In this document: in pieces, positions 6,345 to 8,336 of the stretch | How positions within the stretch are numbered: position 1 is the first letter of the stretch | Layout: every line of letters starts with the position of its first letter | Source: a virus | Lineage: Duplodnaviria; Heunggongvirae; Uroviricota; Caudoviricetes | Strand: one strand, 5' to 3' | IMG/VR virus record: IMGVR_UViG_3300044712_000123 | Length of the DNA: 64,000 bases | The notes under the pieces: generated by a model | Told to the model about the DNA's origin: nothing | The model's database searches: none | Seen by the model: the letters and a program-made list of their open reading frames with translations, nothing else | Program-made: the position numbers and the translations under genes

Positions 6345-8336
6345 TTATTTAAGACCTTTCAGAATGGCAGATTCTTTTACAGGCACACAGTTGTTAACTC
6401 TAGTGTCACCCTTCATCTTAGTGCCTTGCTTTTTATAGCCTTTCCAGCATGATGGATCTAATCGTTGGTCTTCTGCCACACCTTGCTGTTTACCGCGCCC
6501 AACACTACCATCTGGTTTTAGGAACAAGTCAACCCCGTATTGCTTGTTGTCGTGATTGATTTTATTCATACGACCTTGTTTGAAACCTTTAGCAAAGTAT
6601 TGCTTATACATACCACTATGTTGACTATGCCAGTAGTTTATCTTCATGGCCATTTCTAATGTAGCACCATCAGCAAGACTTACACCTTTTATAAAACCAT
6701 CTTCTTGTGCCATCTTGGCAATGTCCGGACTGAATCCTTCATCGTCATCGCCACCATTGAATCCATCTGGAGCGAATTCGTTTAGTGAGCCTTCCGCCAC
6801 ACCTTGCTCGCCACGCTCTGCTTGACGCTTTGCCCAACGTGCTTTATTCTTTTCCACTTGAGCAGGGCTTGCCTTCTTCTCTTTGCTTAGTGCGCGGTCC
6901 AATGCTTTGTGCAGTACACTCACACCATGCTTAACAACATCCTTAGGCTTAGCAATGCTATCTGCACCTAATGTTACTTCAGGCTGACCTAACTCGTAGT
7001 CATCGCGGCTACCATATTTGCTGTTACTCTTTTTATCACGGGTGCCATTATAACCCTGTGAGTCCATTTCACGCATCAAGTGAGGGTTCTTACGTTGCTC
7101 TAAGTCAACTAAGTCAGCATTCAATTGACCCATTGTCAATCCATACTTACCACGCTTTAAATCTTCAATGACTTCAGGGTGTGCGTTTAACCATTTACGC
7201 ATTTCAGGAGACATCTTGCCTGCACGAATAGCATCTGCATAGCTTGACAAGAACTTGATGTATTCTTGTTTGTCTGCATCGTTAGCAACAGATCCATCAC
7301 CACGAGGACTACCAGCTGTACCGTGAGGTACAAATGGTGTACCTGGTCTGAATGTAGCATGTGGTGCAGTAGATGCACGTGCGCCACCTGAACTTGCGTG
7401 ACCACTGGATGCATGACCACCTGAACTAGCGTGACCACCACCTCCACCGTGGCCTCCGCCTCCGCCACCACCTTTAGCCATAGCGTTACCGGCCATAGCA
7501 CCTAAGGCTGCTGCACCCGCGCCCTTTAAGAAGCCTCTGCGATTCAAGTCAGCTTCTGCTACACCTTGCTTTAGACGCTTGCCAGCAATAACTTCAATGC
7601 CGTTGATTTCTAAAGGATACCAATCCTGAGCCGCTAAAGCATCAAATATATCTTCTAAAGAACTGGCTTTCCATTTTAGTTTTGTTGGCTTCTTTAGTGC
7701 GTTGCCTTTGTCAAGTGCTAATATGTTATAAATATGTTCAGAGCCTTCCGCCACACCTTGCTCTTTAGTTGGATTAACTGGCACTACTTTATATCTGCGA
7801 GTCTTTTCATCCCATACAGTTTTCATAGGACCTTGTTTAGCACGTTGTCCTACACGTTTAACCATCGCTTGATATTCTGGACCATAGTCTGCTTCACCTT
7901 CAGAAAGACCTTCACGCTTTTTCTGACTTACTACTTGATGAATAGCCTGAAATGCTTCATTATCTTTTTTGTGTTGTGCTAATAATTCTTGATTATTTGG
8001 TGGTAAATGTTTTTTAGCATCAAATGATAGTGATGATCCACGCAACTTATCATAGATTGCTTGTCTCTCTTGAATTCGTTGAAGAATTTCAGCTTGTAGT
8101 TGTTCTAACTCACTAACTGAAAGATTTTGGTAAGGTGCTAGACTAGCTCGATACTGAGCGATGCGTTCTTGTTTTTCAACATCACCCATCTTAACGCCAG
8201 CGTTATAACCACGTTGATATTCGTTTGATTCAGGACCATAGATAGAACTAGCACGAGGATTAGCTTGACCACGCTTACCATCACTCACACCATCTTGATA
8301 TGCACCTTCGGTTAAACCTCTTAAAATACTGCTCAT
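6345..8336 (-). CDS. Modular polyprotein-like internal head protein with QGVAE linkers and internal Tat-like signal
   Basis: Four (E/K/Q)QGVAE repeats plus GLTE/GLSE sites separate unrelated modules; DLNRRGFLKGAGAAALGAMAGNAMA followed by a Gly/His-rich linker; terminal CWKGYKKQG..NNCVP motif. Confidence 0.7.
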   Translation of the reverse strand: MSSILRGLTEGAYQDGVSDGKRGQANPRASSIYGPESNEYQRGYNAGVKMGDVEKQERIAQYRASLAPYQNLSVSELEQLQAEILQRIQERQAIYDKLRGSSLSFDAKKHLPPNNQELLAQHKKDNEAFQAIHQVVSQKKREGLSEGEADYGPEYQAMVKRVGQRAKQGPMKTVWDEKTRRYKVVPVNPTKEQGVAEGSEHIYNILALDKGNALKKPTKLKWKASSLEDIFDALAAQDWYPLEINGIEVIAGKRLKQGVAEADLNRRGFLKGAGAAALGAMAGNAMAKGGGGGGGHGGGGGHASSGGHASSGHASSGGARASTAPHATFRPGTPFVPHGTAGSPRGDGSVANDADKQEYIKFLSSYADAIRAGKMSPEMRKWLNAHPEVIEDLKRGKYGLTMGQLNADLVDLEQRKNPHLMREMDSQGYNGTRDKKSNSKYGSRDDYELGQPEVTLGADSIAKPKDVVKHGVSVLHKALDRALSKEKKASPAQVEKNKARWAKRQAERGEQGVAEGSLNEFAPDGFNGGDDDEGFSPDIAKMAQEDGFIKGVSLADGATLEMAMKINYWHSQHSGMYKQYFAKGFKQGRMNKINHDNKQYGVDLFLKPDGSVGRGKQQGVAEDQRLDPSCWKGYKKQGTKMKGDTRVNNCVPVKESAILKGLK
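6787..6809. repeat. 23-bp direct repeat, copy 1 (gagccttccgccacaccttgctc; encodes EQGVAEGS)
   Basis: Identical to 7741-7763; degenerate 16-bp cores at 6472-6487 and 7555-7570. Confidence 0.9.
7741..7763. repeat. 23-bp direct repeat, copy 2
   Basis: Identical to 6787-6809. Confidence 0.9.

Follow-up and report, generated by a model that had tools for sequence, protein, structure and literature searches.

We analysed a stretch of 64,000 nucleotides (nt) from a tailed-phage record of IMG/VR (IMGVR_UViG_3300044712_000123, Caudoviricetes), referred to below as the window, in which one open reading frame (ORF) on the minus strand encodes a polyprotein of unrelated modules (Table 1). The first-pass annotation had described it as a chain joined by QGVAE linkers together with GLTE and GLSE, and this description holds: the frame is uninterrupted, with linkers EQGVAEGS at residues 192-199 and 510-517, KQGVAEAD at 256-263 and QQGVAEDQ at 617-624, and with further sites GLTE at residues 7-10 and GLSE at 143-146; the joints thus follow the form G-[V/L]-x-E, four of them being the standard QGVAE. 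The QGVAE site was not found in the other ORFs of the window. The DNA of the linker is conserved beyond the needs of the peptide and of codon bias, as a 21-nt element that occurs in about 90 contigs and in more than 130 flanking contexts.

None of the seven modules starts with Met, and thus they are not separately translatable. M5 is composite: it contains a signal resembling those of the twin-arginine translocation (Tat) pathway with the site AMA/K (7488-7550; here and below a slash marks a cleavage site or a module border), a Gly/His/Ser-rich tract (about 7377-7475) and a helical part, and within it a module border without a QGVAE linker follows LMRE (residue 423, base 7068; LMRE/MD). P0001, the closest homologue among the matches listed, diverges at this border, reading LMREEGVDE/AY there, and several other alignments begin at residues 421-423. 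The M1 leader is kept in homologues as MSNILKGLxE. M3 (EADYGPEYQAMVKRVG...VVPVNP) was also observed as the C-terminal trailer (...YRNMPTAVQPKK stop) of several other proteins, so residues 1-197 resemble a whole gene of leader, module and trailer to which more cassettes have been joined. The proposed echo between the N-terminal SSILRGL and the C-terminal SAILKGL exists in the protein and not in the DNA; as a DNA repeat it is ruled out, with 10 of 21 bases alike when counted by eye (8307-8336 vs 6348-6371). Among the homologues, the N tag MS[NS]IL[KR]GL and the C tail S[AN]I[LM]KGL occur together in 15 proteins, the N tag only in 7, the C tail only in 2 and neither in 152; in P0001-P0036 they form a protein-level pair, perhaps sharing one binding partner.

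Table 1. Polyprotein gene, its modules and linkers, and a promoter-like element upstream
Feature	Position	Strand	Remarks
Polyprotein gene	6345..8336	-	single ORF, 663 amino acids, seven modules M1-M7
M1, leader MSSILRGLTE	8307..8336	-	residues 1-10 (10 residues), with Leu8 and Glu10; resembles the T4 capsid-targeting sequence
M2	7899..8306	-	residues 11-146; C-terminal end is GLSE (7899-7910)
M3	7746..7898	-	residues 147-197; small, basic
Linker EQGVAEGS, copy 1	7741..7763	-	canonical 23-mer, from the repeat search
M4	7554..7745	-	residues 198-261
Linker KQGVAEAD	7549..7571	-	GTA GCA variant; 16/23 vs canonical copy
M5	6792..7553	-	residues 262-515
Linker EQGVAEGS, copy 2	6787..6809	-	canonical 23-mer, from the repeat search
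M6	6471..6791	-	residues 516-622; commonest module
Linker QQGVAEDQ	6466..6488	-	GCA variant; 18/23 vs canonical copy
M7	6348..6470	-	residues 623-663; CWKGY...NCVP mini-module and tail ESAILKGLK
ATAAATA	9116..9122	-	resembles the T4 late-promoter core; 23 nt upstream of gene 8338-9093

The two identical 23-nt linker repeats and the two 16-nt variant cores (6472-87 and 7555-70) noted earlier are all borne out, since the repeat search joins them in one family of four copies, the cores being near copies that match in 15/16 and 14/16 positions. The identical 23-mers are spaced by 954 nt, or 318 codons, and are in frame with each other. Their 21-mer, GAG CAA GGT GTG GCG GAA GGC, has no further copy in the window, and zero are expected from shuffles. 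The two identical copies have unrelated flanks, and thus there was no larger duplication; since the 21-mer is also found in about 90 other contigs, a recent local duplication is ruled out. The first-pass annotation had noticed conserved synonymous positions and had ascribed them to recent duplication or recombination: the conservation indeed exceeds the expectation from peptide and codon bias, and recent duplication is not its cause.

The linker is spelled with codons that this phage uses sparingly. In the long ORFs of the window GTG makes up 12% of Val codons, GCG 7% of Ala, GAG 25% of Glu and GGC 17% of Gly, and the background over the window and the scanned loci is 12-19% for GTG and 7-8% for GCG. 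Given the peptide QGVAE, the spelling CAA GGT GTG GCG GAA has a probability of 0.0026 under the codon usage of the window and is seen in two of the four linkers; the codon usage of the IMG/VR loci gives 0.0037 for the same 15-mer. These loci come from a scan of IMG/VR with a fully degenerate back-translation of EQGVAEG (GARCARGGNGTNGCNGARGG), which returned at least 119 loci from many different metagenomes, related contigs among them not being independent. Among the matches listed, the 21-mer of the window recurs exactly in 48 of 134 EQGVAEG sites, and each canonical codon prevails at about 82-90% (CAA in 116 sites, GGT in 121, GTG in 113, GCG in 110 and GAA in 120). The canonical 15-mer occurs, again among the matches listed, at least 167 times in at least 92 loci and in 156 unique contexts of 105 nt, which fall into 136 clusters by the left flank and 137 by the right; in 154 of the 156 the frame is open. 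Information content is about 2 bits only from -3 to +17 and about 0.1 bit elsewhere, which delimits a sharp island of about 21 nt. In addition, when the window was compared with ten M6-bearing loci (not independent of each other) at residues identical in both, the same codon was used in 85% of cases in the linkers vs 68% inside M6 (Fisher p = 0.0014). In G001, a complete genome of 352 kb, the element is present eight times at no more than two mismatches, on one strand and within 9 kb, with zero hits for a reversed-pattern control; the linker variants GMAE, GVKE and GVEE of this genome are derivatives of the canonical spelling by 1-2 nt.

The prediction that modules are exchanged exactly at the linkers is borne out by the borders of homologues, by the P0001 alignment and by a pair of contigs, L135 and L137. 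A protein search, in which the 8,000 best candidates were scored, yielded at least 617 metagenomic proteins, each spanning 7-50% of the query at 41-96% identity. Among the best 120 of these in BLAST, the starts of alignments accumulate at residue 510 (23 cases), and their ends at residues 622 (37) and 261 (9). The homologues carry up to 14 such linkers (median 4) at a median distance of 71 residues, and the modules of the query appear in them in varied order and beside varied neighbours. The alignment of orthologous loci that had been recommended as a check shows replacement of modules in P0001 at linker-type sites: M1, M3, M5 up to LMRE and a nearly identical M7 are retained, unrelated sequence stands in place of M2, M4 and residues 424-622, and similarity switches on or off at GLSE/GVTE, EQGVAEG, GVAEAD and LMRE. 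At the level of DNA, L135 and L137 are 93% identical across the upstream module and M6 up to GGTGTGGCGGA (...GAGCAAGGTGTGGCGGA), unrelated directly past the linker, and 94% identical again from the next gene. The metagenome scan recovered M6-type relatives only, and close orthologue DNA was not found in it. Assembly chimeras seem an unlikely source of this mosaicism, because the repeat of 21-23 nt is shorter than reads and than the larger k-mers typical of assemblers.

M6 is the commonest of the modules, matching 85 representative clusters at any position within proteins of 71-1284 amino acids. It is also found alone in short genes, behind the leader MNKNIRDYINLIE or MKTLREMMDLVE and sometimes followed by the trailer EEQLEE-TSPEAIAKI.... 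We observed the same leaders and trailer as a minimal 'host' gene (P0124, P0174, P0128, L146, L144), whose inserts are one or more cassettes, for example M6 or a CxxC zinc-ribbon module. In G001 (L001), M4 belongs to the same locus as M6 and lies about 5.4 kb downstream of it.

The window encodes a tail sheath, a sheath stabiliser similar to T4 gp15 and a tail tube. In T4, the S77-type prohead protease acts in proheads. Peptidase_S77 of the gp21 type is encoded in G001 (CheckV completeness 100%) by a gene adjoining an acidic scaffold-like ORF, and also in four of five further long linker-bearing contigs, or in 5/9 when long linker-bearing or related contigs are counted. The Gp23-family capsid protein of G001 has an N-terminal region with LLAE/SSAG at residues 41-45, a candidate propeptide site. 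The capsid-targeting sequence (CTS) of T4 reads MKTYQEFIAE (PMC8442874). For the 10-residue CTS of IPIII residues 8 and 10 are needed for processing, the cut falls after Glu, and Asp at position 10 prevents processing (PMC9026906). The leader MSSILRGLTE follows the same rule with its hydrophobic Leu8 and its Glu10, and among 176 homologues there are 77 whose first [LIVMF]xE ends at residues 8-11. Similar starts are found in neighbouring genes: MRANEFITE (4252-5343), MKINQIINE (8338-9093) and MKITHLLNE (11231-13843). The sites V-A-E, L-T-E and L-S-E also conform to the T4 type, in which a hydrophobic residue is followed by any residue and then by Glu, so by its residues QGVAE is consistent with the site of a maturation protease, as had been supposed.

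The gene at 11231-13843 (minus strand) was seen to encode 870 amino acids, with a DUF6267 and a cytidylyltransferase-like region and the C-terminal end ...ESSDYIDEK. A C-terminal end of this type is shared by P0013, P0035 and P0047, which carry QGVAEG linkers and M5/M6 modules; the site G[VLI]xE[GADS] was not found in the 11231-13843 protein itself.

Internal signals of the Tat type provide a further indication of where cuts may fall. M5 begins with AD-LNRRGFLKGAGAAALGAMAGNAMA/KGGGG, a Tat-like signal with an AxA site that scores below threshold (20.6 bits vs the cut-off of 22.7 for Pfam TAT_signal) and has no match to TIGR01409. A signal peptide 260 residues into a protein is sensible only where cleavage exposes it. 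In the homologues, each of the seven internal motifs of Tat type sits 2-4 residues after [LIVM]xE, the sites being GVAE, EVDE, DVEE, QVAE, SLEE, GMKE and SLEE, with upstream sequence otherwise different; the background for [LIVM]xE anywhere in the 12 preceding residues is 19%. The same layout is repeated in a neighbouring GH19 protein, DLEE/NITRRGFLGG..., whose signal passes TIGR01409 (19.1 vs 16.7). This neighbour (4252-5343, minus strand, 363 amino acids) combines a DUF6934-like N-terminal domain, the internal Tat signal DLEE/NITRRGFLGGLAGLAAGAAAA and a muramidase/chitinase-like domain of the GH19 family, and could be a peptidoglycan hydrolase with a signal exposed only after a cut.

Searches for module functions returned little. 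Pfam gave only the sub-threshold Tat signal for the polyprotein; PHROGs matched only the CWKGY...NCVP mini-module, with families of unknown function; PADLOC found nothing in the polyprotein, and the PDB sequences gave nothing meaningful. The ESM Atlas search with the whole protein produced no feature hits and template-modelling (TM) scores of about 0.5 to unrelated folds, and its model looks like beads on a string (predicted TM score 0.21; predicted local distance difference test, pLDDT, 0.50). An AlphaFold2 model of M6 built from 19 sequences had a pLDDT of 60.6, too low for a fold search. Among 75 relatives scanned with Pfam, nine families were found in 1-4 proteins each, including occasional HD, GH19, cytidylyltransferase-like and methyltransferase domains.

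On balance we regard it as probable that the polyprotein is cargo of a giant phage of the T4 type, with a CTS-like leader, recombining 21-nt linkers, release by a gp21-type protease and exit together with the DNA. The shared 21-23 nt would serve as in-frame micro-homology for the recombination system of the phage, by which cassettes may be inserted, deleted (as between the identical copies 318 codons apart) or swapped with the frame kept, and repeated exchange would keep the spelling of the linker uniform. The leader would target the chain into the prohead, where the gp21-type (S77) prohead protease would cut the linker peptide after Glu and free the modules as small proteins, which would then exit the capsid along with the DNA. 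A cut at KQGVAE/AD would create an N-terminus four residues ahead of the Tat-like signal in M5, so the M5 piece could go out via the Tat pathway of the host. A more specific proposal is made only tentatively: the 21-nt QGVAEG sequence may be under selection in a dual role, as in-frame cassette joint and as prohead-protease site, and some of the cuts may unmask a Tat signal and thereby re-route injected cargo to the periplasm of the new host.

Several points weigh against the cargo mechanism. The repeat of 21-23 nt lies below the homology usually quoted for efficient recombination in T4 (under 50 bp; PMC2839356), and breakpoints may fall at linkers in part because chimeras that do not fold are lost. 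The window contains no prohead protease gene, and INPHARED gave no protein or DNA match and thus no cultured relative. Since gp21-type proteases have few sequence determinants, the presence of [LIV]xE supports the predicted cleavage only weakly, and many such tripeptides occur inside modules as well. Finally, the modules can be called effectors by analogy alone, since no module has an identified function.

Three other explanations were weighed. An uncleaved multidomain protein that works intact, with the linker as hinge and recombination joint and its likeness to a protease site coincidental, would suit the flexible beads-on-a-string model and the very loose [LIV]xE motif, and the DNA evidence by itself requires no cleavage. 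In such a protein, however, a buried Tat-like signal and its AxA site would be of no use unless brought to an N-terminus, whereas 7/7 follow [LIVM]xE by 2-4 residues; moreover, the stand-alone M6 genes have a leader and linker ahead of the module, and unrelated modules arranged in any order speak against a cooperative machine. We therefore consider this explanation unlikely.

It is rather improbable that the chain stays unpackaged and is cut in the producing cell's cytoplasm by some other protease, of the phage or the host, with the pieces acting late there, for instance through Tat export to the periplasm. The length of the leader and its positions 8 and 10 agree with the T4 CTS, the only protease so far tied to these phages is of the prohead S77 type, and the window ORFs scanned contain no other protease; the placement of Tat-like signals after the sites would nevertheless agree with such cleavage, as would the neighbouring GH19 muramidase-like protein, whose internal Tat signal passes TIGR01409 and which could serve lysis.

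Least probable is that the 21-nt element is kept for another function in nucleic acid, either as a target of a site-specific recombinase or endonuclease (integron-like) or as an mRNA feature (a Shine-Dalgarno-like AAGGUG, or a rare-codon pause aiding one-by-one folding of modules): GTG and GCG, both rare codons, are fixed and the sites of G001 are clustered in one 9-kb locus, on one strand and in one frame, but no recombinase or homing endonuclease was found beside the gene, a pause would not demand one exact spelling, and the only symmetry is GAGC...GCTC (4 bp, by eye), the repeat search having given no inverted repeats in the gene.

The T4 late promoter TATAAATA has the core ATAAATA. The exact promoter is absent from the coding strand of the window, where the 7-mer ATAAATA alone shows enrichment ahead of genes: in 14 of 22 occurrences it lies no more than 60 nt upstream of a gene start, mostly 18-33 nt before structural genes, and this phage probably uses it as its late-promoter core. 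Minus-strand sites include 9116, 33892, 36527, 37169, 40326, 45932, 60818 and others. The gene 8338-9093, preceded by such a site, ends 1 nt before the start of the polyprotein gene, and late co-transcription of the two is therefore likely, which suggests late co-expression of the polyprotein with the structural genes.

Auxiliary genes elsewhere in the window (1651-2628, 3434-4255, 15835-18892, 20885-21718) include those for a TctC-like binding protein, a non-specific endonuclease, an AAA+ ATPase, DnaJ and PhoH. The TctC-like protein and the endonuclease have hydrophobic N-termini that resemble Sec signals; the large AAA+ ATPase corresponds to phrog_4871 and is followed by the DnaJ homologue.

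If the proposed mechanism is true, a large clade of uncultured giant phages would have a built-in standard for protein modularity, in which one short sequence solves both frame-safe recombination and the release of separate proteins. It would explain the turnover of a large repertoire of small, probably host-directed proteins, and hundreds of module families would become definable by their natural borders. It would also supply a natural design rule by which T4-type capsids could be loaded with, and deliver, several proteins encoded by one gene, and Tat signals just past the predicted cuts would represent a new route for phage-delivered proteins. A full-text literature search for QGVAEG gave no relevant paper, and no published description was found.

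The closest parallels are the internal proteins of T4, where the CTS of IPI, IPII, IPIII and Alt is removed by the prohead protease gp21 (PMC9026906, PMC3012670, PMC12373910). Common to both are a leader of roughly 10 residues in which position 8 is hydrophobic and position 10 is Glu, diverse cargo behind it, a cut after Glu (predicted here), a phage of the T4 type and a Peptidase_S77 protease, which here is seen in relatives. In T4, however, each gene encodes one small protein with its leader, whereas here a single ORF may string together as many as 14 modules, and the standard linker between them is fixed at the DNA level too. Both packaging and cleavage have been demonstrated in T4; here they are predicted. 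Ejection or inner-body proteins of phiKZ, 201phi2-1 and SPN3US are processed at S/A/G-X-E or A-X-E (PMC5694885, PMC9026906). These too belong to giant phages and are cut after Glu at a three-residue motif, often redundant in propeptides, but they are separate genes with long propeptides, and no conservation of the site at the DNA level is reported for them.

The polyvalent proteins (Iyer et al. 2017, PMC5512222) similarly unite many unrelated domains in variable architectures, with predicted delivery along with DNA and processing. Recognisable enzymatic domains dominate in them, and zincin-like metallopeptidases were proposed for their processing (PMC5512222); no peptidase family, zincin-like ones being expected of polyvalent proteins, was found in our polyprotein or in the 27 window ORFs scanned with Pfam. 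Unlike theirs, the modules described here are mostly of 50-110 residues and without a Pfam family, and they share one standard peptide joint with a fixed DNA spelling.

Finally, the promoter-early stem-loops (PeSLs) of T4-type phages are likewise short repeated DNA motifs that border inserted, deleted or replaced cassettes, and they were proposed to work via the phage's own homologous recombination (PMC2839356, PMC4122927); inverse PCR was applied to them to look for excised circles (PMC2839356). As with PeSLs, the cassettes by which close relatives differ are bordered here by a conserved repeat. A PeSL is about 100 bp long and intergenic, combines a promoter with a terminator and moves whole genes, whereas the linker element has 21 nt, is coding and moves protein modules in frame; the composite of sigma-70 promoter and stem-loop has no counterpart in it, given that 154/156 listed contexts are open and inverted repeats are lacking. 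The combination of a standard in-frame linker, a fixed DNA spelling and intragenic module exchange is present in none of the compared systems and, if the mechanism proposed here is true, would make the linker an intragenic counterpart of integron or PeSL cassettes.

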